Assembly (NCBI GenBank): GCA_963845205.1
Contig: CAWJRC010000004.1
Span: 185,724-249,723 of the forward strand
DNA: 64,000 bases
Direction of reading: 5' to 3'
Origin: an uncultured archaeon
Lineage (GTDB): Archaea; Nanobdellota; Nanobdellia; Pacearchaeales; GW2011-AR1
This document shows positions 2,362 to 54,653 of this stretch, piece after piece (position 1 is the stretch's first letter; each line of letters opens with the position of its first letter). The notes beneath the pieces are model-generated. The model saw only the letters and a program-made list of their open reading frames with translations, was not told the DNA's origin and did not search any database. A program made the position numbers and the translations under genes.

Positions 2362-2416
2362 AAAAGGCCATAGAAGAATTCGTTTATAAATCTTATGTAT
2401 TGTTGTTACTTGTTAA

Positions 2417-3385: not shown

Positions 3386-3427
3386 ATTCCTCTTCCTGTT
3401 TATAATAAACTGAAAATGGTTTTTAAA

Positions 3428-9341: not shown

Positions 9342-10835
9342 ATGAGGTTCAACATACTTTTTGGAGGAAAAGCAGGGCAGGGGCCTAACTTACTTTCTGA
9401 AATTCTGGGAAAAGCTCTGATAAAGCAGGGGCATTATGTTTTTGTTTCAAGAGATTACCAATCTTTGATAAGAGGAGGACACAATTTTAATGTACTGACC
9501 TTTTCAGACGAGCCTGTGAACAGCAATGACTCACATTTTGATATGATAATTGCTTTGGATAAGAATACAATTAACCTTCATAAAAAAGATCTGAACAAAA
9601 AAGGAGTTATAGTTGAAGGCGAAGGAAAAGGAAATATGTATTTTGCAGGAAAAGTTTTCAGAAGCCTTTGCCTTGATTTTAATGTCCTGGAAGAAGAATT
9701 AAAAGGATTGAAAACAAGATTTGATGAAAATATGCTTGAAGCAAAAGAGGGATATAATGAAGAGAGCAAAGTTCTCTGCGAGGTTGTTTATAATGAGAAA
9801 GATTTGCGATTTGAAAACGGAAATCAGGGAATTGCCAACGGTGCAATAAAATCAGGGCTGGATGTTTATTATGCTTACCCGATGACTCCTGCTACTGGCG
9901 TCATGGATGAACTTGCGAAACAGCAGATTGAAAAAAATTTTCTTGTTGTTGAACTTGAAAGCGAAGTTTCTGTTATCAACACCGCACTTGGGAGCGCGAT
10001 GACAGGGGCAAAGGCTATGGTCGGAACTTCTGGCGGAGGCTTTGATTTAATGACTGAGGCTTTGAGCATGTCTGGAATTGCAGGAATTCCTATTGTAATC
10101 TATCTTGCTTCACGTCCCGGACCATCAACAGGAGTTGCAACTTATACTTCTCAGGGGGATTTGGAATTGGCAAGGCATTCTGCTCACGGAGAATTCCCAA
10201 GATTAATTTTAGCTCCGGGAAACCCAAAAGAATGCGCGGAATTAATGAGCCAAGCATTTTATTTCACGCAAAAATACAAGATTCCCGCAATTGTTTTAGG
10301 AGACAAACATTTGGCCGAAAGTTTTTTCAGTTCAGATGAAAAATCAGTTATAACTTCTTCAAAAAAATCAACTTCATTAGTCAGATATAACAGCTATGAA
10401 ACAGACAAATTCGGATGCGCAACAGAAGATCCCGAAATTATCACCAAAAATGTAAAGGACAGGAAAATAAAAGGAGAAGAAATTGAAAGAGAAGCGGGAA
10501 AATTCAGCTCTGTTAATGTTTACGGAAAAGAATCCGAGAATATAATTGTTTGCTGGGGAAGCACAAAGGGGGCGATTCTGGATTCTGTCGAAGATCTTGA
10601 TGTCAAGGTTCTCCAGTTTTTGTATCTTGATCCATTTCCAACCCAGATAAAAAAAGATCTTGAAGAAAAAAATATAATATTAATAGAAAATAATTCAACA
10701 GGACAGTTAGGAAAATTGATTATGGAAAAAACAGGGATTTATATTCCTGAAAAAAATAAAATTTTAAAATATGATGGAAGGCCGTTCCTGGCTGATGAAT
10801 TAAGAATTGAAATTAAAAGGAGATTAAAAAAATGA
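9342..10835 (+). CDS. 2-oxoacid:ferredoxin oxidoreductase, fused gamma-alpha subunit
   Basis: N-terminal gamma-type GGKAGQG domain followed by an alpha-subunit body (YPMTPAT...). ATGA-coupled to the beta subunit. Confidence 0.85.
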   Translation: MRFNILFGGKAGQGPNLLSEILGKALIKQGHYVFVSRDYQSLIRGGHNFNVLTFSDEPVNSNDSHFDMIIALDKNTINLHKKDLNKKGVIVEGEGKGNMYFAGKVFRSLCLDFNVLEEELKGLKTRFDENMLEAKEGYNEESKVLCEVVYNEKDLRFENGNQGIANGAIKSGLDVYYAYPMTPATGVMDELAKQQIEKNFLVVELESEVSVINTALGSAMTGAKAMVGTSGGGFDLMTEALSMSGIAGIPIVIYLASRPGPSTGVATYTSQGDLELARHSAHGEFPRLILAPGNPKECAELMSQAFYFTQKYKIPAIVLGDKHLAESFFSSDEKSVITSSKKSTSLVRYNSYETDKFGCATEDPEIITKNVKDRKIKGEEIEREAGKFSSVNVYGKESENIIVCWGSTKGAILDSVEDLDVKVLQFLYLDPFPTQIKKDLEEKNIILIENNSTGQLGKLIMEKTGIYIPEKNKILKYDGRPFLADELRIEIKRRLKK

Positions 10836-11668
10836 AAGACGAACTTAATACACCTACGATTCCGACATGGTGTCCGGGATGCTATAATTTTCAGATACTT
10901 GCAGCAGTAAAGAATGTAGTTTCAGAACAATTAAAAGCGGGAAAGAAAAAAGAAGATTTTGCCCTCGTTTCAGGAATCGGATGCCATGGTAAAATCTTTG
11001 ATTATTTTAATTTGAACGGATTAAATACTCTTCACGGAAGAGTTATTCCTGCATGCACAGGAATTAAACTTGGGAATCCAAGTCTTACTGTTCTTGGCTT
11101 CAGCGGAGACGGCGATGCATATGCAGAAGGAATGGAACATTTGATTCACGCTGCGAGATATAATTCTGATTTCAAGTATTTCGTTCACAACAATCAGGTT
11201 TTTGCTTTGACAGGAGGGCAGCCTACACCGACAACAGAAATCGGGTACAAAGACAAAACAACTCCTTTAGGAGTAAAGCTTCAGCCTATGAATCCTATAA
11301 AATTAATGCTTGCTGCAGGAGCAGGTTTTGTCGCGAGAGTATTTTCAGATATAGATCAGGTAGAATCTGTTTTCAGGGAAGCATTAAAATACAAAGGGTT
11401 TGCATTCATAGAAATTATCCAGCCGTCAGTAATTTTCCACACTGATAAAGGCTATAAGGAGATAAGTTATTCTCTTGAAAAAGAAGGGCATGATAAAACT
11501 AATTTTGAAGCAGCATGGAAAAAAGCCGATGAATTCGATTACAACACCGTGAAAAAAATCCCATTAGGAATTTTTTATCAGAAAGAAAAGCCTGTTTTTG
11601 AAGATTTATTTCCCCAGCTTGTTGATTTGAAGAAGAATAAAATGGGCTGGAAAGATATTAAGAGATAA
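10832..11668 (+). CDS. 2-oxoacid:ferredoxin oxidoreductase, beta (TPP-binding) subunit
   Basis: WCPGCYNF Cys motif and GDGDAYAEG TPP-binding motif. Confidence 0.85.
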   Translation: MKDELNTPTIPTWCPGCYNFQILAAVKNVVSEQLKAGKKKEDFALVSGIGCHGKIFDYFNLNGLNTLHGRVIPACTGIKLGNPSLTVLGFSGDGDAYAEGMEHLIHAARYNSDFKYFVHNNQVFALTGGQPTPTTEIGYKDKTTPLGVKLQPMNPIKLMLAAGAGFVARVFSDIDQVESVFREALKYKGFAFIEIIQPSVIFHTDKGYKEISYSLEKEGHDKTNFEAAWKKADEFDYNTVKKIPLGIFYQKEKPVFEDLFPQLVDLKKNKMGWKDIKR

Positions 11669-11669
11669 A

Positions 11670-11972
11670 TTAGCCTATAAAACTAATCGAAGCAATAAGA
11701 CTCTTAAGCCCCTTTGAAGATAAAACTTGTCTATGCTCTTTTATTTTTCCTTCTTTATCATGGAATGATTCTTCTAATACGGTTTCTTTTCCGTTATATT
11801 CATCAGGAACATTATCCATGAAATCAAAATAAAATTCCCCAATTTTTATTTTAGTTATAAGAATAAAATCCGTATCCTTGTGACTTATTATAGGAGCAAT
11901 CGCTTTGTTTTTGTGATAACTCCCGCTATATAACTTATTTAAAATTCCTTTATACACTCTAGATTCGATCAT
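11670..11972 (-). CDS. small conserved hypothetical protein, paralog of 20452..20742
   Basis: Shares GIL..L, I.[IV]G[DE][FY], P[DE].Y..K, GK.I.[EH] and SKG blocks with the 96-aa ORF at 20452. A TTTATAAA box lies about 27 nt upstream. Confidence 0.55.
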   Translation of the reverse strand: MIESRVYKGILNKLYSGSYHKNKAIAPIISHKDTDFILITKIKIGEFYFDFMDNVPDEYNGKETVLEESFHDKEGKIKEHRQVLSSKGLKSLIASISFIG

Positions 11973-12002
11973 ATTTTACAGAAAAAAATTTGGTTTATAA
12001 AG

Positions 12003-12569
12003 TTATTTGACAGAAAGTTCCCAAATGCACAATCTTTCAAAGAATAATTTCTCGCAGCCAATTTCTTTTGAATTATATCCAAGTTTTTCAAAATCAATGT
12101 CTGGAGAAAGAGAAGAAGTTATCAGGAAAATTCTTCCGCTATCTTTTAGATAATTTTTTGCGTTGTTCAAGAATCTTAAAATTATTTCATTTCCTTTTTT
12201 CCCGCCTGTTGTTGCTAATTGCGAATCTTTTGGCTCCCGTGAATCTTCAGGCAAATAGGGGGGATTAAATATTATCAGATCAAATTTGTCTTTCGGAATT
12301 TTTTCAAACAAATCTGAATGAATGCAGTTGAATCCAAGAAGATTGCAGTAGTTCACCGCCTTTATGCTTATGTCAGAAGAAAAAATATTTTCAACTTTCA
12401 CCCCGAGAATTTCAGCTGTTTCAAGGTGAATCCCGCTTCCTGCGCCAATCTCAAGAAATTTCAAATCTTTATTTTGCTTTAGAAGTTCAGGCAATTTTTC
12501 TTTCAATATCCCCGACATCAAAAAAGAATCTTCAGCCGGCTGGTAAATAGACATTTTACTTGCCTGCAA
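12003..12569 (-). CDS. SAM-dependent methyltransferase, HemK/Mtq2-like (NPPY class)
   Basis: Motif I LEIGAGSG and motif IV IIFNPPYLP. Confidence 0.7.
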   Translation of the reverse strand: MQASKMSIYQPAEDSFLMSGILKEKLPELLKQNKDLKFLEIGAGSGIHLETAEILGVKVENIFSSDISIKAVNYCNLLGFNCIHSDLFEKIPKDKFDLIIFNPPYLPEDSREPKDSQLATTGGKKGNEIILRFLNNAKNYLKDSGRIFLITSSLSPDIDFEKLGYNSKEIGCEKLFFERLCIWELSVK

Positions 12570-13125
12570 AAATGCTACTGAAAAAGCTAAGCAGTTCCTG
12601 TTTAAATATAAAAATTGTCGCCAAAAGTCCGCTTAAAAAAATCAGGAGGAAAATTAAAACTAGAATTATAACCCTTTCATAAGGCCCCGGCTCCCCATAA
12701 CTTGAAACAATCTGAATCGGCTGGAAAACAGGCGCTTGACCCTGGGCCCCTGAAACCACCTGAACAGGAATAGCCTGAGGCGCAGACTGAACAGAAGAAG
12801 GAGCAACTATACTCTCCATTTTTTGTTTTTCCGGTTTGGGCTGTTTTGATTTTGATGATACAATGCTTTGAAAAAAAGATTTTTTTTCAGATGGAATTTT
12901 CATTTTCTGCTGTTTTGAAGTAACAGTTGTCTTTGCCACTAAAGGTTTTTTTTCTTCCAGAAGCCCTAATTTTGATTCCATATCAGAAGGAACCAAAGCA
13001 CGTGCAGCCTCTTCGATTTCAGCTTTTTGGTATCCGGCATTAAACATAGTCATCATCGCCCTTTTCAAAGATTCACCACGTTCAAGAGCAGATTTTAAAC
13101 CACCAAGAACTTCATCATTAACCAT
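12556..13125 (-). CDS. C-terminally membrane-anchored hypothetical protein
   Basis: 189-aa ORF with a helical N-domain, a Q/P/S-rich linker and a single C-terminal TM segment. Confidence 0.5.
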   Translation of the reverse strand: MVNDEVLGGLKSALERGESLKRAMMTMFNAGYQKAEIEEAARALVPSDMESKLGLLEEKKPLVAKTTVTSKQQKMKIPSEKKSFFQSIVSSKSKQPKPEKQKMESIVAPSSVQSAPQAIPVQVVSGAQGQAPVFQPIQIVSSYGEPGPYERVIILVLIFLLIFLSGLLATIFIFKQELLSFFSSIFAGK

Positions 13126-13206
13126 AAAATATTGAGGAATGTATTATTTAAAAAATATGAGGTAAAGGACCGAAAATAATATATAGAAAATATTAAAGAT
13201 AAATTT

Positions 13207-13623
13207 ATGAAAGAGTATCAGAAAAATTTCGAGGAATCCCCTCCAGCAGAATTATTGAATGCTATTGAACAAGTTCAAAGTTTTCAAACTTCCAGATTAA
13301 CAAAAGAATTGTGGAAAGCAGGAGAAAATCTTTTAAGAAAAGAAAAATTATGGGCAAATAATCCATTTAATTCAAGAAGATCTGAATTATCTTATTGCTT
13401 CCAAGAAGAAATTTACACAATTGACTATGAAAGAAAAGTTGGATTTGGATGTGATAATTTTACTTTTTGTCTTAACCAAGTTACAGAAAAAGATGAAACT
13501 CAAAAGAATATATTTATTTTAAGATATAAAAATAATTTTTGGAATTTTTTTAAGAAAGAGACTTTAACTATTTTAATAACAGAAAATGGATCAGAAAAAT
13601 CAAATAATGTTTTTTATTACTAA
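13207..13623 (+). CDS. hypothetical protein
   Basis: 138-aa ORF with no recognised motif. Its stop abuts the convergent RNase J stop. Confidence 0.4.
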   Translation: MKEYQKNFEESPPAELLNAIEQVQSFQTSRLTKELWKAGENLLRKEKLWANNPFNSRRSELSYCFQEEIYTIDYERKVGFGCDNFTFCLNQVTEKDETQKNIFILRYKNNFWNFFKKETLTILITENGSEKSNNVFYY

Positions 13624-44668: not shown

Positions 44669-45802
44669 TTAAGCAGTACCGCATTGAGTTCCTGTTGATG
44701 AAGAACTTGAACTGCCTCCACCAAATCCGTAAGATGCCTGATTTGTATCCAATGTTGTAGAACATGCTGAAGGAACAGTATTGAATGCGCTACAGATTAC
44801 TCCTTTAATAGCTTCTGGGCTTCTAGTGTCTATTGAAGCTTGAACACCATTTATTATCATAGTAGGACTTCCTGTAACTCCAACTGATTGTGCATTTTGA
44901 GCTTCTGCATTGAATAGACTAGTTCCTTCTGAAGACATACAGGAGTTGATAGTAGTTTCGTTAATTCCCAATTGGCTGTATATAGCCTGAATTAAAGGTT
45001 CTACACAAGCTGCATTAGTTGAACTACCTTCACAGTTTCCGATACCTGAGTTTGTAGCAAATGCAGAGATGTAATTTAAGTATTCTGAAGGATAATTCTT
45101 CTCTATACATAATTGCCTTTGAGTTTCTGTTGTTTCAAAGCAGTTGCTTCCAGTACATCCCTGAGGGTCATGCATTTCACCGATATATCTTATACTGAAA
45201 TTAATATCACTTCCAAGCAAACTTATTACAGGAAGAATTGCTTTTTCTGTCTGTAATCCATAAGGGCAGTATGCAAAAACATAAAGATCAACAACTGGCT
45301 TGTCTGTTTTAGGAATAGCTGCTGTTTGCGTATTAGAAGAAGTTGATGAAGTTTGTGATTGAGAACTAACATACTTAGCATATGAGTTTATATTTATCAT
45401 TCCTCCGCCCCAGTCTATATATTGTCCGTTATATGAAAGATAAATCGGAATCGTTGAATTCTTATAGTTTACATTAACAGTATAAACACCAATTTCAGTG
45501 GTATCATTAACAGATCCAAGAGTTGACCCGTTATCTGTAGTCAAATACTGATTCAAAAAGGTTACAACTTTTGTTCCTGCCTCATTTGCAGAGATTACTC
45601 CGCCAGTATCAGAACCTGAGAACATTGAAATCAAAAGAATAACAATCAAAATCCCGCAGATGAATGTAGCAAGCATCCATGGATTTCTTCTTACATTTTC
45701 AGTCATATTTTTTTTATGAGAATGTTCGGGCATATGCTCATATTCTTTATGCTCATGCTCGTGCTCATGCATATGTTCGTGCTCTTTTTTTTCTTCATCC
45801 AT
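44669..45802 (-). CDS. membrane-anchored DsbA/thioredoxin-fold-like protein with His-rich N-terminal tail
   Basis: HEHMHEHEHEHKEYEHMPEHSH tail, then one TM, then VFAYCPYG (single Cys where CxxC is expected), then VGVTGSPTMIINGVQ, which resembles the DsbA C-terminal motif. Confidence 0.45.
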   Translation of the reverse strand: MDEEKKEHEHMHEHEHEHKEYEHMPEHSHKKNMTENVRRNPWMLATFICGILIVILLISMFSGSDTGGVISANEAGTKVVTFLNQYLTTDNGSTLGSVNDTTEIGVYTVNVNYKNSTIPIYLSYNGQYIDWGGGMININSYAKYVSSQSQTSSTSSNTQTAAIPKTDKPVVDLYVFAYCPYGLQTEKAILPVISLLGSDINFSIRYIGEMHDPQGCTGSNCFETTETQRQLCIEKNYPSEYLNYISAFATNSGIGNCEGSSTNAACVEPLIQAIYSQLGINETTINSCMSSEGTSLFNAEAQNAQSVGVTGSPTMIINGVQASIDTRSPEAIKGVICSAFNTVPSACSTTLDTNQASYGFGGGSSSSSSTGTQCGTA

Positions 45803-45888
45803 TCCAAGGCTATGAAAATATCTTTTAAAAACTTTGTGGAGCTACAGTGAATAAATAAATATTAAAACTCCCCTGAATATTTTATAAT

Positions 45889-47199
45889 ATGCCTTATGAT
45901 ATTACCCTCGGAAGAGATGAAGGAGACAAAGAAAAATTTGGTGATGCGGGATTAATCTATATCGGAAAGGGTTATGTAAAAATGGGGCAGTATACCTCGC
46001 TTAGCAATAAAATTTTTATGGATGTTGCAAGAAGCCATGTTGTTCTTGTCGCAGGAAAAAGAGGAAGCGGAAAATCCTACACGCTTGGGGTTATTGCAGA
46101 AGAGATTTCAAATCTCCCAATTGAGGTAAGCAGGAATATTGCGTCACTGATTTTTGACACGATGGGGATTTACTGGACAATGAAATATGAAAATGAGAAA
46201 GACAGAAAACTTCTCAGAGACTGGGGGTTAAAAACAAAAATTCTTCCTGTAAAAATTTTTGTCCCATTCGGACATTACGATTCTTATCTTGAAAAAGGAA
46301 TTCCTGTTGATAAAAAATTTGCTCTGGATGTCAGGGAAATGAATCCTGAAGATTGGATCATAACATTCGGACTTGATATTATCCATCCTGTTTCTGTACT
46401 TATCCAAAGAACAATCAGCAAATTAAAAGAAAGAGAAAATTTTACAATAAAAGATATTATTTCTGTAATAAAACAAGATGAACAAACTGATAATGAAATT
46501 AAGAATGCAACAACCGGCTTGTTTGAAGCAGCAGATGACTGGGGAATTTTTGCTAAAGAAAATGAAACGCCTACAGAGATAAGAGATTTGATTACTGCAG
46601 GAACAACTTCTGTTTTAGATTTGAGTGTTTACAATTCTGTCGGAGCATTTAATGTGAGAGCTTTAGTTATCAGTTTAGTTTGCAGGAAAACCTTTAATCA
46701 GAGAATGGAATCAAGAAGGGGGGAAGAAATTCAATCTGTCTCGCAGGGAATTAATGTTTCTTTTATAGAAGAAAAAAAGGAAGAGCCTCTTGTATGGATG
46801 TTTATTGATGAGGCACACGAATTTCTTCCATTGGAAGGAAAAACTGCTGCGACAGATGCGCTTATACAACTGCTAAGAGAAGGAAGACAACCCGGAATTT
46901 CTATGGTCTTGGCAACGCAGCAACCAGGACAAATTCACAGAGATGTCATGACGCAATCGGACATTGTAATCTCACACAGAGTTACTGCACAGCCAGATAT
47001 AGATGCGCTGAATTACATAATGCAGAACTATCTTATCCAAGGAATAAGCGTTTACATGAATGATTTGCCTTCAGCAAAGGGAAGCGCTATTGTTCTTGAT
47101 GATAATTCAGAAAGAATTTACCCTATCAGGGTAAGGCCAAGATTCACATGGCACGGCGGAGAAGCTCCTACTGCTGTAGGATACAAACGGGAATTTTAA
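45889..47199 (+). CDS. HerA/FtsK-like P-loop ATPase (DUF87-type)
   Basis: Walker A VAGKRGSGKSYT only about 50 aa from the N-terminus, leaving little room for a full HAS barrel, and Walker B VWMFIDEAHEF. Confidence 0.7.
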   Translation: MPYDITLGRDEGDKEKFGDAGLIYIGKGYVKMGQYTSLSNKIFMDVARSHVVLVAGKRGSGKSYTLGVIAEEISNLPIEVSRNIASLIFDTMGIYWTMKYENEKDRKLLRDWGLKTKILPVKIFVPFGHYDSYLEKGIPVDKKFALDVREMNPEDWIITFGLDIIHPVSVLIQRTISKLKERENFTIKDIISVIKQDEQTDNEIKNATTGLFEAADDWGIFAKENETPTEIRDLITAGTTSVLDLSVYNSVGAFNVRALVISLVCRKTFNQRMESRRGEEIQSVSQGINVSFIEEKKEEPLVWMFIDEAHEFLPLEGKTAATDALIQLLREGRQPGISMVLATQQPGQIHRDVMTQSDIVISHRVTAQPDIDALNYIMQNYLIQGISVYMNDLPSAKGSAIVLDDNSERIYPIRVRPRFTWHGGEAPTAVGYKREF

Positions 47200-47320
47200 A
47201 ATTGAATATTGATAAAATAGAAATTTCTGTCTTATTTACTTAAACTCATAAAATTGAGTAGTCAGTTGCATGTAGACCATAAAATATTTTTGTTAAATTA
47301 ATTGATCTTTTAGCAAATTC

Positions 47321-47749
47321 TTAATCAGAGGATGTATTCAGAATCACTGCGTCGCTAATAAGAGTTTTAAGAGCCTTCTCGTTAATCTTGTCGCCTTTAT
47401 GGAAGTCGATGGCACGCCTCGTTTTACCATTTAGACTAGAATTGAATAGACCTGAGGGATCATCCAATGAAGCGCCCTTTGGGAAAGTCATCTTTACAAC
47501 ATCTTTGTAAATTTCGCCAGTACAGACCATTCCTTTGTGGTACCATACAGATGTTCCTGGAGATGAAGGTTTAACCCACTTCCACTCTTCAACGATTTTG
47601 GGGTCGGCTTGCTTGATCAAAGCACGGAGTCGGGAAAGCATTTCTCCGCGCCAGTCGCCTAACTCTCGAATTCTCGCGTCTATCATTCGAGACGCAGATT
47701 TTTTATCCGATAAAGACACTTTAATTTTCTCTTTTTGTTTATATTGCAT
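47321..47749 (-). CDS. DUF1801 (YdhG-like) domain protein
   Basis: DWRGEMLSRLRALIKQADPKIVEEWKW...MTFPKGASLDDPSGLFN pattern. Codons look more G+C-rich than in neighbouring genes. Confidence 0.6.
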   Translation of the reverse strand: MQYKQKEKIKVSLSDKKSASRMIDARIRELGDWRGEMLSRLRALIKQADPKIVEEWKWVKPSSPGTSVWYHKGMVCTGEIYKDVVKMTFPKGASLDDPSGLFNSSLNGKTRRAIDFHKGDKINEKALKTLISDAVILNTSSD

Positions 47750-47841
47750 AGATTGATTAAACTGATGGGTTTTATTAAATTTATCTAAACCCCCTTATGT
47801 ATTCTTTTAATGGATTAAAGTATAATTTGAGATATAAACAA

Positions 47842-47850
47842 ATCTAAACC
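47842..47850. repeat. left target-site duplication ATCTAAACC
   Basis: Identical 9-mer at 51092-51100. Each copy abuts the outer edge of a terminal inverted repeat. Confidence 0.8.
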
Positions 47851-47865
47851 GGCTTTGTAAATTAA
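47851..47865. repeat. left terminal inverted repeat GGCTTTGTAAATTAA
   Basis: Exact reverse complement of 51077-51091. Confidence 0.85.
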
Positions 47866-47898
47866 TTCCTATTTTGGACTGACTTTTTTTACAAAATT

Positions 47899-48576
47899 TT
47901 ATTGAGTCATTCTATCAAATTCAGTCATAATATTTGCTATATCCTGAATTGAATGATTTAATGGATTTAATTTCATTTGCATTTCTCTGCCTCTTCTTGC
48001 AATCTGCCTAATTGTTTCTATATCTTTAGGTTTAGTCATTAGTTCGTGGATTACTTTATTTCTTTTATCATTAAATTCTAAAAGAGATTTATATGTGGGA
48101 TTATCAATGATACCTAATAAATAGCTTATTGTAGTGTAATCTCTCAAGTATCTCGGATTAAATTTCTTTTTTAGTAACTCAAGTCTTTCTTTATCATTGT
48201 TTGTTAAATCCTCAATCTTTTTCTTTAGATATGCTTCAATGGTATTATGTATCAGGGAAATTGCTTCAATAAAACATTTGCTTCTTAAGGCATGTTCTAT
48301 AACATCTTCAAAACTATTTGGGTCAACTCTTGTTATTCTTACAAGTTCATCTATTTCTTGGTCTTTCCATGCAAGTTCTCTTTCTTCTTTTTCATACACA
48401 GATTCTACATCAAATAAATCATAATAATTACATTGGGGGCATTCATGAGGGCGATTAAATCCCATATCAGAATCTATTTGTTGACCTTCAGTCATCTCCG
48501 AATAGTCTTGTTCTAATTCTTCCATTTCTGCACCACATTTAGGACATTTTACCATAATTATCTTCCCTCGCACCAC
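47899..48576 (-). CDS. Zn-ribbon + HEPN-like domain protein
   Basis: N-terminal CPKCG...CPQC. The helical C-domain carries RNKVIH (Rx4H, codons 48046-48063). Its start overlaps the transposase 3' end. Confidence 0.55.
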   Translation of the reverse strand: MVRGKIIMVKCPKCGAEMEELEQDYSEMTEGQQIDSDMGFNRPHECPQCNYYDLFDVESVYEKEERELAWKDQEIDELVRITRVDPNSFEDVIEHALRSKCFIEAISLIHNTIEAYLKKKIEDLTNNDKERLELLKKKFNPRYLRDYTTISYLLGIIDNPTYKSLLEFNDKRNKVIHELMTKPKDIETIRQIARRGREMQMKLNPLNHSIQDIANIMTEFDRMTQ

Positions 48577-49711
48577 TCACAAGATTTAGTTGGGCAGTCT
48601 TTCCTTTACTTCTTAAATTATCTTTAAACTTTGCTTTCATCGACGAGAAAACTGTTTCTGCGTTGCTTCTTTTATGATAATGTTCCAAAAATTCGTCATG
48701 CTTGTAAATGAAATAAGCATACATCTTTTTCCATGTCCCTGAACCTCTATCTCTTCTTCCTGAAACATTTCTCTTAAACGGAATGTATGGGACAGCACCA
48801 ACATCCTTAATCAGCTCTAAGTTCTTACGAGAACTATAAGCTTTGTCACAACTTATCTCACCCACCTTGAAGTTCTTAGCTGTCTGTTCGACTAAGTGAG
48901 ATAATTGTGGACTATCATTACAATCACCTTCTGTTATTTCACAACCAGTTACAATATTTGTTTTTACTCCAGAGATTAAATGTGCTTTTAACCAAACTTT
49001 ATACTTTCTTTCTTTCCCCCATTTTGTATCAAACCAACGGGCAAATCTTGAAGTAGAGAATCCAGAAGAATCAACAGCGAAATCAGTTTCAATTTCTCTT
49101 AATGGACTTGCACTAATCTCTATTAATTCTTTTAGAATATTTGTTACTTCTTCCTTATTCATAAAATTGCTAATTGTCATAAAGTTTGGAACAACATCAA
49201 CTATATTCATTGCCTGAGCAATTTTCATGTCAGACATAAATCTTCTTAGAGAAAAAGTTGAGTACACTTTCAACGCAGAGGCAAATAGCATTTCTGAAAT
49301 TGGAAGAGTTGGTCTTCCAAATTTATATTTCGGTTGTTCAATATTATCGCATAAATCTCTTAATAATTTCATAAAAATTAATTTTTCGTTTGTCTGTGCT
49401 TTATCATAAGCTTTCCAATCTTGTGAGTAAGTTATCTTTACTCCTTTCGTTTGAGTTATTTTCCCTTCTTCGTCAATTTCTCTTTTTATATAAAATTCAA
49501 CTGCATGAATATGTTTGCATTTCTTTTTTCTTAATTCGCAATCGGGGCAGTTACATTTAGGTTCATGTCCATTGAATGTAACAAGATAAGATTTTCCAGA
49601 ACTGGAAGTAGAAGGAACTCTCCATCCCCTCGAAGTTTTTACTATTTGGAATCTTTTGACTATATCTTCTCCGCGTTCTTCTCTGCTCATTTGTTTGTAT
49701 GATTTTTCCAT
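48539..49711 (-). CDS. DDE transposase with N-terminal SWIM zinc finger (IS4/IS5-like)
   Basis: SWIM CNCPDCELRKKKCKH. DDE candidates are DSSGF, SCDKAYSS and YHKRSNAETVFS. The last about 15 aa do not look like the usual C-terminus. Confidence 0.8.
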   Translation of the reverse strand: MEKSYKQMSREERGEDIVKRFQIVKTSRGWRVPSTSSSGKSYLVTFNGHEPKCNCPDCELRKKKCKHIHAVEFYIKREIDEEGKITQTKGVKITYSQDWKAYDKAQTNEKLIFMKLLRDLCDNIEQPKYKFGRPTLPISEMLFASALKVYSTFSLRRFMSDMKIAQAMNIVDVVPNFMTISNFMNKEEVTNILKELIEISASPLREIETDFAVDSSGFSTSRFARWFDTKWGKERKYKVWLKAHLISGVKTNIVTGCEITEGDCNDSPQLSHLVEQTAKNFKVGEISCDKAYSSRKNLELIKDVGAVPYIPFKRNVSGRRDRGSGTWKKMYAYFIYKHDEFLEHYHKRSNAETVFSSMKAKFKDNLRSKGKTAQLNLVSGAREDNYGKMS

Positions 49712-49720
49712 TGTTATAAT

Positions 49721-49760
49721 TCGGTACCATACATAGTTTATATACTTTTCGGTACCATAA
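49721..49760 (-). promoter_or_regulatory. transposase promoter module: TCGGTACCATA site - TATA - TCGGTACCATA site
   Basis: Sites at 49721-49732 and 49749-49760 flank the minus-strand TATATAAAC (49736-49744). The ATG is at 49711. Confidence 0.55.
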
Positions 49761-49830
49761 TGATTAAATTAATTTTAGAGATATTTGTTAAATTTAAGAA
49801 AGAAATACTTTTCCGAGCATTGAAGAATGA

Positions 49831-49992
49831 TTACTCTTTTTCTATTGTTATTTTGCCTTTCTCTGCTTTTGCTTTAAGATGTTTATCTAACAGACCAGAT
49901 TCTTTAACAATAGCTTCTGGAACAGAACTAATATTGTACTTGTAATATTGTTTATCCCCTACTTTTTTTGATTGAACTTTTAAGAGCTTCAT
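49831..49992 (-). CDS. AbrB/SpoVT-like 53-aa DNA-binding protein (not in ORF track)
   Basis: My translation is MKLLKVQSKKVGDKQYYKYNISSVPEAIVKESGLLDKHLKAKAEKGKITIEKE. It fits the swapped-hairpin pattern (vqk.g.s..v.iP..iv...gl..g..l....e.g.i.i.k). Confidence 0.5.
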   Translation of the reverse strand: MKLLKVQSKKVGDKQYYKYNISSVPEAIVKESGLLDKHLKAKAEKGKITIEKE

Positions 49993-49997
49993 TGGAA

Positions 49998-50038
49998 TAG
50001 GTACCATAATAAACTATTTAAATATGTCGGTACCATAA
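49998..50038 (-). promoter_or_regulatory. AbrB-like gene promoter module: (T/A)GGTACCATAA site - TATA - TCGGTACCATAA site
   Basis: Sites at 49998-50009 and 50027-50038 flank the minus-strand ATTTAAATA. The ATG is at 49992. The architecture matches 49721-49760. Confidence 0.55.
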
Positions 50039-50084
50039 ATAAAATTATAATAATTAATATAAACCAAAGAGAGATATATTAATT

Positions 50085-50594
50085 ATGTCAGAATACTTTC
50101 ATGTAGATTTAAGTCTGAGATTATATGAACAAGGAACTACTGGGATAGCTTGCATTAATTCAAAAACAAAAATACATAACGGCTGTGCTCTCCCAGATAG
50201 ATTAAAAAGACAAATAGAAAAAAATTTTGTTGGGGGTTTAAGAGAAAATTATGCTAAATTATATGCAATTTGTATATATTATTTGATTATAAATAAATTA
50301 GAAGAAATTAATACCCTTGTAATTTGTAATGATGAAGAATTTTTATATGTAAAAGAATATCTTTATTTTTTATTAAATGATTCTCCATTTAGAATACATA
50401 TAATTAGCATAACAGAGTTTAGAAAACAATTAGGGGGTCGAAAAATAAAATCATTGGCAGATAACGCTTCAAAATCTTATAGAAAAAGGGCACTTAAAAT
50501 GAATAAATGGGATATTGGAGTTAAATTAGATGTATTAACTATTACCTATGATATGATTAAAAATAAATTTGATTTATTAAGTAAATTAAAATAA
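50085..50594 (+). CDS. hypothetical protein (transposon passenger)
   Basis: 169-aa ORF divergent from the AbrB-like gene. No recognised motif. Confidence 0.5.
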   Translation: MSEYFHVDLSLRLYEQGTTGIACINSKTKIHNGCALPDRLKRQIEKNFVGGLRENYAKLYAICIYYLIINKLEEINTLVICNDEEFLYVKEYLYFLLNDSPFRIHIISITEFRKQLGGRKIKSLADNASKSYRKRALKMNKWDIGVKLDVLTITYDMIKNKFDLLSKLK

Positions 50595-50770
50595 CCCTTA
50601 ATGGGTGTAAGTGATTAGTGGTCTTCCCAACCAATCATCAGCATAAAAGCTTTTGGAAGATTTTTAAATCTTTTTACGGAACCAGTTCACTTACATATTA
50701 TAAGATGCGATACATATTATAAATTTTTGGCTAAGCAAAAGTTTATAAATAACTAATCCATAACTAAGCC

Positions 50771-51049
50771 ATGGATAGTAATGAATTTATAAGTCAATTA
50801 TTAGAGAAATTAAAAACAAGACCTAAAGAAGTAGCTAAAGAGATAGAGAATAATCCTCAAATATTAGAATTTTTAATTAATAGCTCAAAACAAGCCGAAC
50901 TTGAAAAAAATGAAAAAATTAGATATATAAATATGAATCAAGAAATGCAGATACAATTAGAACAAAAATCAAAAGACCTTAAAGTTACTCAAGGGGTTTT
51001 AATCGGAGCAGGGATATTATTTATCTTATCTTTATTAGATAATAAATAA
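50771..51049 (+). CDS. tail-anchored hypothetical protein (transposon passenger)
   Basis: 92 aa, helical, with a C-terminal TM segment. A TTTATAAA box lies about 30 nt upstream. Confidence 0.45.
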   Translation: MDSNEFISQLLEKLKTRPKEVAKEIENNPQILEFLINSSKQAELEKNEKIRYINMNQEMQIQLEQKSKDLKVTQGVLIGAGILFILSLLDNK

Positions 51050-51076
51050 TCATTCAACTTATTTTACAAGAGGCAC

Positions 51077-51091
51077 TTAATTTACAAAGCC
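51077..51091. repeat. right terminal inverted repeat TTAATTTACAAAGCC
   Basis: Exact reverse complement of 47851-47865. Confidence 0.85.
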
Positions 51092-51100
51092 ATCTAAACC
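51092..51100. repeat. right target-site duplication ATCTAAACC
   Basis: Identical to 47842-47850. Confidence 0.8.
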
Positions 51101-51182
51101 AAATAATTTATAAATCACCTTTTTCTCAAGATTTTATTAACGGCGTGAGCTGTTCTAATGCCGCAAGGCATGATATGATAAC

Positions 51183-51617
51183 ATGGAAAAGAAAAATTCA
51201 GTTTATGAAATGAACCCGAATGAATATAATTTAAAATTAGCAAACGCTCTAAAAGAAGTTCCTGAATTCAAGGAACCAGAATGGATTATATTTGTAAAAT
51301 CATCTCCAAGCAAACAAAGGCCTATTGAGGATGAAGATTTCTGGTACAAAAGAGCTGCCAGCATATTAAGACAGATTTACAAAAAAGAAGTCGTTGGAGT
51401 AAATAGGCTAAGGACAAAATACGGAAGTAAGAAAAATAGGGGAATGAAACCTGAAAGATTCGTCAGAGCAGGCGGAAAAATTATAAGAACAATTCTTCAG
51501 CAGGCAGACAAAGCAGGATTTACAGAGAACATCAGAGTCATAAAGGGAACAAAAGAAAAAAAGCCAGGAAGAAAAATGACACCGAAAGGAAAAGCATTTT
51601 TGGAGGGAATCAAATAA
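51183..51617 (+). CDS. rps19e: ribosomal protein eS19
   Basis: PEWIIFVKSSPSKQRPIEDEDFWYKRAASILRQIY signature. Confidence 0.9.
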   Translation: MEKKNSVYEMNPNEYNLKLANALKEVPEFKEPEWIIFVKSSPSKQRPIEDEDFWYKRAASILRQIYKKEVVGVNRLRTKYGSKKNRGMKPERFVRAGGKIIRTILQQADKAGFTENIRVIKGTKEKKPGRKMTPKGKAFLEGIK

Positions 51618-51618
51618 A

Positions 51619-51948
51619 ATGGCTAAAGAAAAAACTGAAACAAAGGTTAAAGAAAAGAGAAAAATTTTCCAGAAGAAAGAAAAAAAACAGGAAGTTAAAA
51701 TTCAACCTAAGGTAATTGAGATAAAAAAAGTCAAAGTTCCGAAAAAACAGCTTGCTATGAGAGAGAAAAAATCAAAGCTTGCCGTAAAGGGAAGGCAGAC
51801 AAAATGGGCCCCTGTCTGGGTCGTTATGAAAAAATACGGGAAAGGAAAAAGAATTCATCCTTCTGCAACGACAAAGTACAGACGTTCATGGAGAAGAACT
51901 AAACTTCACATTAAACCGAGAAAAATAAGGAAGTGGCATCTAGGTTAA
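51619..51948 (+). CDS. rpl39e: ribosomal protein eL39 with about 46-aa K/E-rich N-terminal extension (or an internal start at Met47)
   Basis: Core KSKLAVKGRQTKWAPVWVVMK...YRRSWRRTKLHI. The ATG lies 2 nt after the rps19e stop. Confidence 0.8.
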   Translation: MAKEKTETKVKEKRKIFQKKEKKQEVKIQPKVIEIKKVKVPKKQLAMREKKSKLAVKGRQTKWAPVWVVMKKYGKGKRIHPSATTKYRRSWRRTKLHIKPRKIRKWHLG

Positions 51949-51949
51949 C

Positions 51950-52531
51950 ATGGCTGAAACAAAAACTGAAAAAATTGAAAGAGAATATATTATTCCATTA
52001 AGACACAGATGGCAGATTGTTCCAAGATACAAAAGAACAAACAAGGCCGTAAAAACAGTGAAGGAATTTTTAGTAAGGCATATGAAAATCAGAGACAGAG
52101 ATTTGAATAAAATAAGACTTGACATACATTTAAACGAAATTCTGTGGAGCAGAGGAATAAAAAATCCCCCTTCAAAGATTAAAGTCAAGGCAATAAAAGA
52201 AGGAGATATTGTTAGGGTAGAAGCTGTAGACTTGCCTGAAAGAATAAAATTCAAGAAATTAAGAGCAGAGAAAGTTGAAAATGCTGCAAAGGAAATTGCA
52301 ACAAAAAAGAAAGCAGAGAAAGTAGTTGAAGAAAAAGTAGAAGAGAATAAGACAGAAAGCGAAGAAAGCAAGAAAAAAACAGAAGAAGAGAAAAAAGAAT
52401 CAACTATCCAAGCAGAAGAAAAAATTGAGAAAGCAGAAGCAAGGGCCGAGAAACACACTACAAAAGTCAAAACACCAAAGCAAGAGAAAATGCAGACTAA
52501 GGCATACGATTCAAGTTCAAGAGGACATTAA
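51950..52531 (+). CDS. rpl31e: ribosomal protein eL31 with about 90-aa K/E-rich C-terminal extension
   Basis: Core EREYIIPLRHRW...VRLDIHLNEILWSRGIKNPPSKIKVKA, followed by a low-complexity EKKAE tail. Confidence 0.85.
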   Translation: MAETKTEKIEREYIIPLRHRWQIVPRYKRTNKAVKTVKEFLVRHMKIRDRDLNKIRLDIHLNEILWSRGIKNPPSKIKVKAIKEGDIVRVEAVDLPERIKFKKLRAEKVENAAKEIATKKKAEKVVEEKVEENKTESEESKKKTEEEKKESTIQAEEKIEKAEARAEKHTTKVKTPKQEKMQTKAYDSSSRGH

Positions 52532-52884
52532 TGGGATCTAAAAACCTTAGAGAAGATGATGATTTCTATTTTATTTCTAGGCAGGGAAAAGAACCATTCA
52601 TTTATTTTGAAATTGGATACACTACATTTTCGAAAATGAAATCGAGCAGTACAAAAGATATTGTAGACCAATTTTCTGAAAGCGTTCTTAGCAAGAACAA
52701 AGCAGGAGTCAGAAAACATATTGAAAACAGGTGCGAAGAGGAATGGCCAAAATATAATTTTGAATGGAAACAAGATGCTTATCAGTCAAACGAGATTGAT
52801 AGAAAAAATATTTATGTATTAATTAACGAAATTCCCATAAAAAAAAGCTCGATAGATATAATTATTATAAGAAAGGAGAAATAA
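52531..52884 (+). CDS. hypothetical protein
   Basis: 117-aa ORF starting at the rpl31e stop. It sits where eIF6 usually follows eL31 in archaea. Confidence 0.4.
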   Translation: MGSKNLREDDDFYFISRQGKEPFIYFEIGYTTFSKMKSSSTKDIVDQFSESVLSKNKAGVRKHIENRCEEEWPKYNFEWKQDAYQSNEIDRKNIYVLINEIPIKKSSIDIIIIRKEK

Positions 52885-52914
52885 ATTTTTATATTCCTTT
52901 TAATTTTCTAATTA

Positions 52915-53928
52915 ATGGCTAAAACAAAATTTGATTCTTATTGCATTAACGGGATTACAAACGGATGCGAGTATTGCGTTAAAGGAGAAAAACTTGTTCT
53001 GTTTATTTCGGGGGTCTGCAAAAGAAACTGCTGGTATTGTTCTTTGAGCGAAAAAAGAAAAAATAAAAACCTAATTTTTGCAAATGAGAGAGAATGCAGA
53101 GACATCAATGATGTTATAAAAGAAGTCAAAGACAGCAGAGCAACTTCAGCGGGAATTACAGGGGGAGATCCTTTGCTTTTTTTTGACAGAACATTAAAGC
53201 TTGCCTCGCAATTAAAAAAGAAATTCGGAAAAAAATTCCATATCCATATTTATCTTCCTACAAAATTTGTTACAGAAGAGAAATTAGAAAAGCTATCAAG
53301 ATACATAGACGAAGTAAGATTTCATCCTGAATTTTTAATAAACAAAAAAACAGTAAAGGAGGATTTAGAAAAAATAAGACTTGCAGGATTATTTTGGAAT
53401 AAGCCGAATATCGGAATTGAATTACCCATGATTCCGGATAATAAAAAAGAGATCCTTGATTTTATTCTTAAAGCGAAAAACTTTATCAGTTTTGTAAATT
53501 TAAATGAATTTGAATTATCTGAAACAAATTTTGACCGCATTACAAAAAGATACAAATTAAAAGAAGGGGGGTATGTTGTCTCAAAAAGTCTTGAGGCAGG
53601 AAAATGGGTTCTGGATGAATTGTCTAAAAGAAAAATAGATTTGAAAGTTCATTTATGCACTGCGCAACTGAAAAATTGCTGGCAATTTGAAAACAGATTA
53701 AAGAGACATAAAATTCTTCCTTATGGAAAAAGAACAAAGGAAGGAACTGTTCTTTATCTTTTTGTAAGGGGGAAATTAAAGATGAAAGGAACGTTTTATG
53801 ATATAAAAAAAGACAGAACAATTTTATCCGAAGAAACCGCAAGAAAACTTTTAGGTGGAGGGAAAATAATCAGGATAGAAGAATTTCCTACGTACGACAG
53901 AATTGAAGTGGAGGAAGAGGAATTATGA
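52915..53928 (+). CDS. radical SAM protein (COG2108-like)
   Basis: Canonical CKRNCWYC (CX3CX2C) preceded by an N-terminal GCEYC cluster, plus a GGDPL motif. Confidence 0.8.
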   Translation: MAKTKFDSYCINGITNGCEYCVKGEKLVLFISGVCKRNCWYCSLSEKRKNKNLIFANERECRDINDVIKEVKDSRATSAGITGGDPLLFFDRTLKLASQLKKKFGKKFHIHIYLPTKFVTEEKLEKLSRYIDEVRFHPEFLINKKTVKEDLEKIRLAGLFWNKPNIGIELPMIPDNKKEILDFILKAKNFISFVNLNEFELSETNFDRITKRYKLKEGGYVVSKSLEAGKWVLDELSKRKIDLKVHLCTAQLKNCWQFENRLKRHKILPYGKRTKEGTVLYLFVRGKLKMKGTFYDIKKDRTILSEETARKLLGGGKIIRIEEFPTYDRIEVEEEEL

Positions 53929-54653
53929 AAGAGATTGAACAAATAAGAGAGAAACTTAAAACAAAGGCAAAACCTGAAAAAATCCCTTTTTTAAAAAGAA
54001 TTTTAGCGACGCCATTTGAAGTTATCGGAGTAATGGTTCCTGATTCTAGAGAAATTGCAAAAGATTACAAAGATCTCGAAATTTATGATTTGTATGACTT
54101 ATTTGATGAACTTTGGAATTCAAACATTCATGAAGAAAAGAGTTTAGCAATACATATTTTACAGCAGTATAAGAAAAGATTTAATCTGGAAACTTGGAAA
54201 TTTTTGAGGCAGAGATTAGTAAAGGCAAAAACATGGGACCATATTGACTGGCTTGCAACAGACATTTTCGGAGAAATTCTGCTTAACAATTTATTCTTGA
54301 TGACCGAGGTTAAAGAGATGGCAGAGTCGAGAAATTTTTGGGAAAGAAGATTTGCAATTGAATCAACTTACAAGATGATTAAGGAAAATAAAATTGAGCT
54401 TACTCTCCGTTTAGCCGAAAAATTAGTTTATGATAATAATACTTATGTCCAAAAAGGAGCAGGATGGATGCTTAGAGAAGCAGGGAAAAAGAACCGGGCT
54501 GCAGTTAAGGATTTTATTTTAATGCACCTTGATATGAAACCGACTGCATTCTCCTATGCGACGGAAAAAATGAAAGAGCTAAGAAAAATTAGGAAAGAAA
54601 AGTCAAAGGAAAAACCTACTCTCTTATTTTCAGATCAACATCAGAACGAGTAA
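53925..54653 (+). CDS. DNA alkylation repair (AlkD-like HEAT repeat) protein
   Basis: WERRFAIEST...YVQKGAGWMLREAGKKN signature. ATGA-coupled to the radical SAM gene. Confidence 0.7.
   Translation: MKEIEQIREKLKTKAKPEKIPFLKRILATPFEVIGVMVPDSREIAKDYKDLEIYDLYDLFDELWNSNIHEEKSLAIHILQQYKKRFNLETWKFLRQRLVKAKTWDHIDWLATDIFGEILLNNLFLMTEVKEMAESRNFWERRFAIESTYKMIKENKIELTLRLAEKLVYDNNTYVQKGAGWMLREAGKKNRAAVKDFILMHLDMKPTAFSYATEKMKELRKIRKEKSKEKPTLLFSDQHQNE

Follow-up and report, generated by a model that had tools for sequence, protein, structure and literature searches.

What kind of mobile element lies directly in front of the gene for ribosomal protein S19e (rps19e) in an uncultured archaeon of the order Pacearchaeales, can it still move, and how did it come to insert at the very edge of a promoter? 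The locus is part of a 64,000-nt stretch (hereafter the window) of GenBank assembly GCA_963845205.1, contig CAWJRC010000004.1, positions 185,724–249,723 of the forward strand; all coordinates below are counted from its first nucleotide. We interpret the segment 47851–51091 as a unit (non-composite) DDE transposon of an IS903-related family that resides mainly in DPANN archaea, and this particular copy as crippled by an internal deletion, with a probability of about 0.85 for this interpretation as a whole. The initial annotation of this DNA had described an intact, passenger-carrying transposon.

Delimitation of the Element and Its Relatives

The element begins and ends with a perfect 15-bp inverted repeat (IR), GGCTTTGTAAATTAA and its exact reverse complement (15/15), and the same 9-mer, ATCTAAACC, abuts both IRs on the outside as a target-site duplication (TSD; Table 1). 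The 15-mer has no further match in the window, even with up to two mismatches allowed. Among 100 simulated 64-kb windows (Markov-1), searched for inverted repeats abutted on the outside by identical 9-mers at most 15 kb from each other, there was no pair with an IR of at least 14/15, and pairs with 12/15 arose about 0.5 times per window; the combination of the 15/15 IR and the 9-mer pair is therefore well beyond chance. The interior contains five open reading frames (ORFs), and the G+C content is 29.1% compared to 33.9% in the window. Removal of the element yields ...AAACAA-ATCTAAACC-AAATAA-TTTATAAA, with ...AAACAAATCTAAACC joined directly to AAATAATTTATAAAT, i.e., a region with a transcription factor B recognition element (BRE) and a TATA box, 68 nt upstream of the rps19e ATG. 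A new reading of the sequence, with a repeat search and the ORF list, reproduced exactly the coordinates, the nested TSD and IR geometry and the ORF inventory of the initial annotation, as well as its placement of the passenger genes inside a single IR pair and of the insertion site just upstream of the rps19e TATA box (51092–51114).

The loci of the closest homologues have the same 15-mer ends, around elements of very different sizes, each with its own 9-bp direct repeat: 6,666 bp in L002 (duplication (AAT)AAAATA, partly cut by the contig end), 8,345 bp in L004 (TCTTGATAT) and 6,228 bp in L005 (GTTAAAACC, between rpS8e and TFIIB). In the orientation of the transposase gene (tnp), the last 52 nt of the right end in the window match those of L002 at 94% identity, and L004 and L005 share this end. 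A wider scan of one genome per GTDB species added 80 more loci, with hosts that are mostly DPANN (Pace-, Woese-, Nano-, Aenigm-, Micr-, and Iainarchaeota); other hosts, at 45–55% identity, are some methanogens and some Acidobacteria and Chloroflexi. A script that sought an IR of at least 12/15 abutted by identical 9-mers around tnp, and that imposed no end sequence, delimited 48 of the 84 loci with an IR and a perfect 9-bp TSD, and 47 elements were kept. Although not required by the script, GGCTTTG is present at the ends of 45 of these 47. The terminal IRs of the family span 15–17 bp (GGCTTTGT...AAGT), and the elements range from 1,802 to 13,394 bp (median 5,644).

These relatives also bear on the question of whether the IR and the 9-mers could represent a common intergenic repeat, or the segment an integrated plasmid or virus. 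A third copy of ATCTAAACC is located nearby, outside the element (three copies in the window vs. 0.79 expected), as might be seen with a dispersed repeat. However, the 15-mer occurs only twice in the 64 kb, elsewhere it always brackets tnp and is flanked by other 9-mers, and no integrase, replication or capsid genes were detected in the element with Pfam, NCBIfam and PHROGs, so that we see virtually no room for this explanation. The initial annotation had seen a true transposon here, to be sought in related genomes by its IR, and this is borne out by the 47 delimited relatives and, altogether, by about 50 other sites where these termini enclose elements with a transposase, every one of which has a 9-bp duplication of its own.

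Relationship to the IS903 Group

The transposase of the window matches DDE_Tnp_1 (PF01609; E 2.2e-18, residues 210–373), and at its N-terminus there is a SWIM-type CxCx(n)CxH finger that scores 16.7 bits, below the Pfam cut-off; this is the SWIM and DDE architecture that had been assigned to it earlier. The best NCBIfam model, NF033579 (transpos_IS5_2), yields 112.4 bits and does not reach its cut-off of 140, to which the truncation of the query described below may contribute a few bits, and the lineage is a divergent one. Its nearest annotated plasmid-borne relatives are IS5-family (ISVa2-like) transposases with about 27% identity over residues 96–405, and a metagenomic protein collection contains 7,130 significant homologues. 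The catalytic signature YHKRSNAE (Y-x2-R-x3-E) is present in the window protein and invariant in the family alignment.

IS903 is an insertion sequence (IS) of about 1.06 kb with one gene. The family shares with IS903 and IS903B a DDE_Tnp_1 domain with the YxxRxxxE...K signature, the IR tip and the 9-bp target duplication: the first 8 nt of the family ends, GGCTTTGTAAATTAAGT, are identical to those of IRL and IRR of IS903B, whose IRs begin with GGCTTTGTTGAATAAATC and whose direct repeats are 9 bp long (PMC10569121). The differences are equally clear-cut: the family elements span 1.8–13.4 kb, with cargo on both sides of tnp, and are not compact single-gene IS; their transposase has an additional N-terminal SWIM zinc-finger region of about 95 aa and stays below the cut-off of the curated model; and the target is a one-sided BRE/TATA at a fixed distance, in contrast to the palindrome WTTYA-N9-TRAAW with A/T-rich flanks that is preferred by IS903 (PMC2577343). 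Judging from these sequence comparisons, the family is best viewed as a new lineage that carries cargo, homes to promoters and is allied to the IS903 group. By analogy with known DDE chemistry, the transposase would act on the terminal repeats and insert the element via 9-bp staggered cuts.

With one tnp, cargo on both sides of it, a single IR pair and one TSD, these elements are unit transposons or transporter IS (tIS). As in other such elements, the Tn3 family included, one transposase and terminal IRs are combined with passengers that lie inside the IRs and are dispensable for transposition, whereas the resolvase and res site of Tn3 have no equivalent in the family. Our literature search brought up no tIS or unit transposon from the IS5/IS903 group or from DPANN archaea, and a 2019 survey stated that no DNA transposon with passenger genes had been detected in archaea (PMC6563490).

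Internal Deletion in the Window Copy

The transposases of the family are about 410 aa long and have a conserved C-terminus, NELLLKILCYNIC-VVIQE-(I/T)-ELGIKGEF-VEE, a segment with 90–100% conservation in all 10 aligned relatives that is missing from the window protein. The latter diverges at about residue 376, with family residues ~377–410 replaced by 14 foreign residues (...LNLVSGAREDNYGKMS). In the tnp orientation, the homology to tnp ends at element position 2508, and positions 2493–2532 match the final 40 nt of a gene for a Cas4-like PD-(D/E)XK nuclease at 92% identity. The peptide CPTKSCEWC in this remnant corresponds to the C-terminal Cys cluster of the nuclease, and the rest of the gene is absent from the window. 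Full-length genes for the Cas4-like protein (215–216 aa, Pfam PDDEXK_1, PF12705) are located downstream of tnp in L002, L004 and L005, with 84–87% protein identity; in L002 and L004, a type IIG methyltransferase/Eco57I gene lies between tnp and the Cas4-like gene. Evidently, a deletion has removed tnp codons ~377–410, almost the whole Cas4-like gene and the intervening DNA, which probably included a restriction-modification (R-M) module. This event, between 16-nt microhomologies, crippled tnp after or around the insertion next to rps19e and spared the putative regulator, the predicted RNase H-fold and small membrane proteins, and the Zn-ribbon-HEPN protein discussed below.

Given that the transposase is devoid of its conserved C-terminus and that the deletion junction is present, the copy is not intact, contrary to the initial annotation. 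An intact, autonomous 3.24-kb transposon, with four passengers that form a self-regulating or addiction package, would account for the perfect IRs and TSD, for the open tnp ORF with its catalytic signature, and for the presence of a regulator with operators and of a HEPN-like putative toxin. We nevertheless consider such an element improbable in view of the loss of a segment conserved in 10 relatives, the recognizable junction with the remnant of another gene, the lack of an antitoxin (e.g., MNT) beside the HEPN gene, and the frequency of decay in this family. Indeed, L098 (Joint Genome Institute [JGI] metagenome, 1625–4650) is a 3,026-bp internally deleted copy with perfect ends, the TSD TATTCTGTT and transposase residues 326–408 only, and in L095 the right end is mutated and a transposase gene is missing from the adjoining 9 kb; such decay is common among these elements.

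The window copy is most likely non-autonomous: with perfect ends and its own transposase partially deleted, it could move only if a transposase were supplied in trans. The following points count against our interpretation. The truncated tnp ORF is still open and retains D, D and YxxRxxxE, so that residual activity is possible; there is no second transposase copy in the window, which covers only 64 kb of the genome, so that a helper could be encoded elsewhere; and an exact 28-mer of the reconstructed empty site between the DUF1801 gene and rps19e has no match in the JGI metagenome contigs, where the organism of the window is not represented. The copy is a decaying and probably immobile relic next to an rps19e core promoter that it does not disrupt. 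As a single locus, it is a modest relic, and the interest lies in the family that it reveals.

Insertion at the Upstream Edge of Promoters

The 47 empty sites were reconstructed, and the octamer TTTAWAWA (at most one mismatch) was scored by offset over the 94 flanks. It is found exactly 6 nt outside the duplication in 32 of the 94 flanks, vs. 0–5 flanks at each other offset (0–51), and at offset 5–7 on at least one side of 33 of 48 sites; the background in the same loci is 3.4% of all positions and 7.0% of intergenic positions (binomial p 2.5e-27). On contigs with archaeal titles, the octamer is present at 32 of 41 sites, or at 37 of 41 if two mismatches are tolerated, whereas none of the five copies from high-GC bacterial hosts has it. 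The 6-nt spacer has the consensus RAAANN (A at positions 2–4 in 22, 29, and 30 of 32 sites, respectively) and resembles the archaeal BRE, and the adjacent end of the duplication is C-rich. The TATA box is found on one side only, the opposite flank being featureless, and the element occurs in both orientations relative to the promoter (18:16). In 28 of 34 cases, an outward-reading ORF starts no more than 400 nt away, and the most frequent distance between TATA and ATG is 21–22 nt, as expected for leaderless archaeal mRNAs.

In an independent test, the JGI metagenomes were searched with the right end of the window subfamily. All four new ends that were retrieved have the order TSD, RAAANN and TATA at offset 6, and in three of the four the ATG follows exactly 21 nt after the TATA box. 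The element in L086 conforms as well, with offset 6 at the promoter of a proteasome gene. Thus, insertion upstream of a promoter is the rule in this family, and the rps19e site of the window follows it. Such placement, 6 bp before the TATA box and just outside the BRE, with the host promoter firing away from the element, would leave the core promoter intact and avoid coding sequence in very compact genomes.

Two other candidate targets were rejected. An IS903-like palindrome is incompatible with a one-sided motif, and ATCTAAACC is not a target sequence in itself: the duplications differ between sites, apart from the C-rich end beside the BRE. The third copy of this 9-mer, which the initial annotation had taken as a hint of target preference, does not have that significance, the conserved feature being the BRE/TATA 6 nt outside the duplication.

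The adjacency to promoters could, in principle, arise with no active targeting at all, from quasi-random or AT-biased insertions among which only harmless intergenic ones survive. The data are natural, selected insertions, and the intergenic regions of DPANN are short and rich in TATA-like sequence, as the 7% background illustrates. Under survivorship, however, any spacer offset would be expected, in contrast to the sharp peak at offset 6, to the common register of the four independent ends and to the BRE-like RAAANN that always fills the gap. Because the register is exact, we favor active targeting over harmless survivors and regard survivorship as highly improbable. Active targeting, in turn, has to be weighed against the nature of the evidence, i.e., fixed insertions filtered by selection, and against the approximately 20% of archaeal sites that have no clear TATA at offset 6.

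How the promoter edge is recognized is a separate question. Targeting might be real but depend on sequence alone: the transposase, for instance via its SWIM finger, would read RAAANN-TTTAWAWA directly, in an elaboration of the known flank preference of IS903 and with no host transcription factor involved. We see this as falling only somewhat short of an even chance. Intrinsic target motifs are frequent among transposases, and the RAAA adjoining the duplication is similar to TRAAW, one half of the palindrome preferred by IS903 (PMC2577343). On the other hand, the motif spans 14 nt on one side only, while a transpososome with two-fold symmetry would be expected to prefer palindromes; the opposite flank is featureless; and the five examined relatives from bacterial hosts have the same domain architecture but not the motif. 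Alternatively, as we propose tentatively and with clearly less than an even chance, the family might home to the promoter edge by recognizing a promoter bound by the TATA-binding protein (TBP) and transcription factor B (TFB). We view the two mechanisms as roughly equally likely, and the one-sidedness together with the absence of the motif in bacterial hosts leans slightly to a host factor.

The yeast long terminal repeat (LTR) retrotransposons Ty3, Ty1 and Tf1 integrate a short, constant distance away from a core promoter or a binding site of initiation factors, sparing coding sequence, and are tethered by known contacts (TFIIIB, Pol III, Sap1). The family described here likewise inserts at a fixed short distance from the core promoter in compact genomes; the two cases differ in that the former are eukaryotic LTR retroelements and the latter is an archaeal DNA transposon, with a tether that is hypothetical. 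If recognition of the TBP/TFB-bound promoter is correct, the family would be the counterpart, among prokaryotic DNA transposons, of the integration that the transcription machinery guides in Ty3 and Tf1, and it allows the tethering of a prokaryotic transposase by general transcription factors to be tested. The insertion rule (9-bp duplication, 6-bp BRE-like spacer, TATA) also suggests a safe-harbor strategy in extremely compact genomes and offers a means of promoter annotation in uncultured archaeal lineages. Should the transposase prove reconstitutable, it would become a candidate tool for integrating DNA close to archaeal promoters.

Cargo of the Family

Genes were called and proteins clustered in the 47 elements, and 132 cargo proteins were scanned with Pfam and PADLOC. 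The cargo, which varies on both sides of tnp, consists mostly of restriction-modification and other defense genes. The most common is a type IIG enzyme of about 836 aa (N6_Mtase/Eco57I), found in 20 of the 47 elements; C5 methyltransferases and the Cas4-like nuclease are each present in six. Altogether, the methyltransferases include N4/N6, D12 and C5 enzymes, the endonucleases are BglI, MunI and SfiI, and further cargo comprises ResIII helicases, PDDEXK_1 and PDDEXK_3 nucleases, Fic, DruA, GmrSD, the primase of the TOTE system and a MADS component.

The possibility that the PD-(D/E)XK protein is a TnsA-like core partner of the transposase was considered and rejected, because no more than 6 of the 47 elements have it and its gene mostly appears together with the type IIG R-M gene. 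Solo-Cas4 genes beside R-M genes have been reported in DPANN genomes (Hudaiberdiev et al., 2017, PMC5704561); their context is the same as in the sister elements of the window copy, although they were not described as transposon cargo in that study.

The dominance of defense genes in the cargo, and the tight targeting to a "safe" site beside a conserved host feature, are reminiscent of Tn7-like elements (Benler et al., 2021, PMC8649781; archaeal Tn7 preprint, 10.1101/2025.07.27.667033). The Tn7-like systems, however, employ TnsABC and a target selector, whereas the family has a single IS5-like DDE protein, and they use one or a few attachment sites, in contrast to a generic feature that is located upstream of most genes. 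Neither the family nor promoter-edge targeting in archaea is described in the literature that we searched, which did not include ISfinder, so that some members may already be named. On balance, we think it somewhat more likely than not that this is an undescribed, widespread archaeal transposon family, most abundant in DPANN, in which both the role of a defense-gene vehicle and the base-pair-precise BRE/TATA homing are real and undescribed. With thousands of transposase homologs and members that nearly all carry cargo, the family provides a concrete route for the exchange of defense genes among DPANN archaea and their neighbors.

Several loci show composite arrangements. In L014 (2529–15059), a different IR (GGTTCTGTCGCA..., 13/15) with the 9-bp direct repeat GATTTTCGA encloses the family element, and this outer repeat may belong to a second, unrelated transposon with a nested insertion. 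In the bacterial locus L079 (Terriglobia; 3413, 5576, 12136), two left ends go with a single right end and are flanked by an identical 9-mer, AGCGGATTC, which suggests a tandem or partially duplicated element. In L004, the element is surrounded by a tyrosine integrase gene and numerous small ORFs (903–1808, 10604–13605), and an integrated virus or plasmid may have been its landing site.

A Putative Repressor and Its Operators

The small protein of 58 aa, a putative DNA binder, is shared by the window copy, L004, L005 and five other elements. Four of seven aligned members of this family match Pfam MazE_antitoxin (PF04014; best E 2e-5), which is in keeping with the previous description of an AbrB-like mini-protein; the window protein itself has no match to this model, and a PDB sequence-profile search with the family returned nothing meaningful. 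Two copies of ATGGTACCGA bracket the TATA-like box of tnp, which is 12 nt upstream of the tnp ATG, and this paired-operator arrangement is kept in L004 and L005. A second pair of GGTACC cores occupies the promoter region of the 58-aa gene, which is shared divergently with the gene for a 169-aa protein (Table 1). Among elements that have the 58-aa gene, 6 of 7 show a GGTACC pair within 500 bp upstream of tnp, vs. 1 of 41 among those that lack it (Fisher p 4e-6), and the one exception, L012, carries a divergent 58-aa homolog.

The 58-aa protein probably represses its own gene and tnp via the ATGGTACCGA operators, the four of which, bracketing two TATA boxes, would keep tnp transcription down. 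To be set against this is that the argument proceeds from the co-occurrence of operator and regulator, and that the link between the protein and GGTACC is putative. The same co-occurrence lends some substance to the self-regulation that had been attributed to the cargo, whereas its role as an addiction package is speculation.

The slot directly upstream of tnp is occupied, in different elements (L002, L009, L013, L014, L016, L026, L035, L047, L084; L018, L019, L023, L024, L034, L069, L076), by at least four unrelated small DNA binders: ribbon-helix-helix-like proteins of 46 and 54 aa, a zinc-ribbon protein of 66 aa and the AbrB-like protein of 53–58 aa. This variety implies repeated exchange of the regulatory module.

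Other Passengers of the Window Copy

Searches of Pfam, NCBIfam and PHROGs with the 225-, 58-, 169- and 92-aa proteins gave no significant match. The 218-aa Zn-ribbon-HEPN protein (225 aa from the alternative start) has 35 homologs, none of them annotated, and its family is characterized by four conserved N-terminal cysteines and an invariant F-N-x2-R-N-x3-H motif; the HEPN Rx4-6H motif, R165-N-K-V-I-H170, is invariant in 27 homologs. In Foldseek searches with its AlphaFold2 (AF2) model (mean predicted local distance difference test [pLDDT] 89), the only coherent matches were HEPN proteins: 2hsb (TMt 0.64, prob 0.87), 2q00, 1o3u and HepT 6m6u. The invariant RNxxxH motif and these fold matches favor the Zn-ribbon-HEPN label of the initial annotation, and the protein is a putative RNase effector. 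What speaks against this assignment is that the fold matches, at probabilities of 0.5–0.87, have weak E values (0.5–3.4), that the 218-aa protein has no match in Pfam, NCBIfam or PDB sequences, and that a PDB sequence-profile search with its family found nothing meaningful.

The RNxxxH motif and the predicted, HEPN-resembling helical fold recall the HepT toxins of HepT/MNT systems, from which the cargo protein differs by the fused N-terminal four-Cys zinc ribbon, by the absence of a Pfam HEPN match and by the absence of an MNT partner; no cognate antitoxin of this kind adjoins the gene. The Zn-ribbon-HEPN gene is the last gene before the family right end in all three other loci examined (L086, L093, L095), and it is therefore recurrent cargo that outlives the transposase. 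In two related genomes, this gene is located upstream of the same proteasome/aCPSF1 gene pair (L095:9001–9830, L086:1036–2330), with a transposon right end that is intact in L086 and mutated in L095 (...TTATTCTCAAATTTC). This looks like an orthologous insertion in the course of fossilization, with the HEPN gene kept.

The 169-aa protein has 40 homologs, including one with 52% identity in L004, where its gene is likewise paired with that of the 92-aa protein. Its AF2 model (pLDDT 93.5) matches RNase HII, an integrase core and a terminase nuclease in Foldseek (prob 0.9–0.99, E 2e-3 to 1e-2, TM 0.45–0.5), and the invariant D8 lies on strand 1 and D83/E84 after strand 4, as part of a predicted RNase H-like fold. 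It has to be noted, against this prediction, that there is no Pfam match and that the assignment draws on weak Foldseek E values and motifs. A homolog of the 169-aa protein, P0178, is found on 15 contigs (L088–L092) between a gene for a 273-aa protein and one for a 1,979-aa SLT-domain protein, in a neighborhood that also encodes a 698-aa M23 peptidase; this context suggests a separate DPANN element akin to a plasmid or virus.

Table 1. Features of the transposon upstream of rps19e and of its flanks (window coordinates).
Feature	Position	Strand	Basis or remark
DUF1801 protein (flanking gene)	47321..47749	-	Pfam
Third copy of the 9-mer ATCTAAACC, outside the element	47783..47791	+	59 bp from the left duplication
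Target-site duplication, left copy ATCTAAACC	47842..47850	.	sequence, 9-mer search
Transposon end downstream of tnp (right end in tnp orientation)	47851..47902	-	15-bp IR 47851–47865 and conserved subterminal stretch with an inverted TTTGTAAA-like repeat
Zn-ribbon and HEPN-like protein, 218 aa	47899..48555	-	225 aa if read from GTG at 48576
Truncated transposase, 390 aa	48539..49711	-	N-terminal SWIM-type zinc finger and IS5/IS903-like DDE domain
Remnant of Cas4-like PD-(D/E)XK nuclease gene	48558..48599	-	last 13 codons and stop, DCPTKSCEWCEGR*, out of frame with tnp
Deletion junction	48584..48599	-	16-nt microhomology, GACTGC followed by CCAACTAAAT; three-way comparison with tnp of L004 and the PD-(D/E)XK gene
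tnp promoter region	49723..49756	-	two ATGGTACCGA copies, GGTACC cores 49723–49728 and 49751–49756, bracketing TATATAAA box
AbrB/MazE/SpoVT-like DNA-binding protein, 58 aa, putative repressor	49831..50007	-	probably 53 aa, start M6 at 49992 (family alignment)
Promoter region of the 58-aa gene	50000..50034	-	GGTACC cores 50000–50005 and 50029–50034, bracketing TTTAAATA box
169-aa protein, predicted RNase H-like fold	50085..50594	+	invariant H6, D8, S10, D83, E84
92-aa tail-anchored or small membrane protein	50771..51049	+	C-terminal hydrophobic segment GVLIGAGILFILSLL
Transposon end upstream of tnp (left end in tnp orientation)	51057..51091	+	IR 51077–51091 and subterminal CTTGTAAAA repeat
Target-site duplication, right copy ATCTAAACC	51092..51100	.	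sequence, 9-mer search
Host core promoter next to the insertion	51101..51114	+	BRE-like AAATAA 51101–51106, rps19e TATA TTTATAAA 51107–51114
Ribosomal protein S19e (flanking gene)	51183..51617	+	Pfam; ATG 51183

Neighborhood of the Insertion

Read on the minus strand, the third copy of ATCTAAACC is located 3 nt upstream of the TATA-like sequence TTTAATAA (47771–47778) in the promoter of the DUF1801 gene; this TATA-like sequence is 22 nt from the ATG of that gene. The 9-mer thus precedes both divergent promoters, of the DUF1801 gene and of rps19e, at different offsets and in opposite orientations, a proximity that is unlikely to arise by chance (roughly 1e-3, as a rough estimate).

The 68-nt leader of rps19e, from the TATA box to the ATG, contains the unusually GC-rich stretch GGCGTGAGCTGTTCTAATGCCGCAAGGCATGA (51141–51180) with a possible GCC-GCAA-GGC hairpin. 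Given that Rfam models at permissive thresholds (E no greater than 1) have no match in the region 45000–54000, this leader does not represent a known RNA. Just upstream of the DUF1801 gene, at 45889–47199, there is a gene for a 436-aa HerA/FtsK-like ATPase (DUF87, HerA_C).

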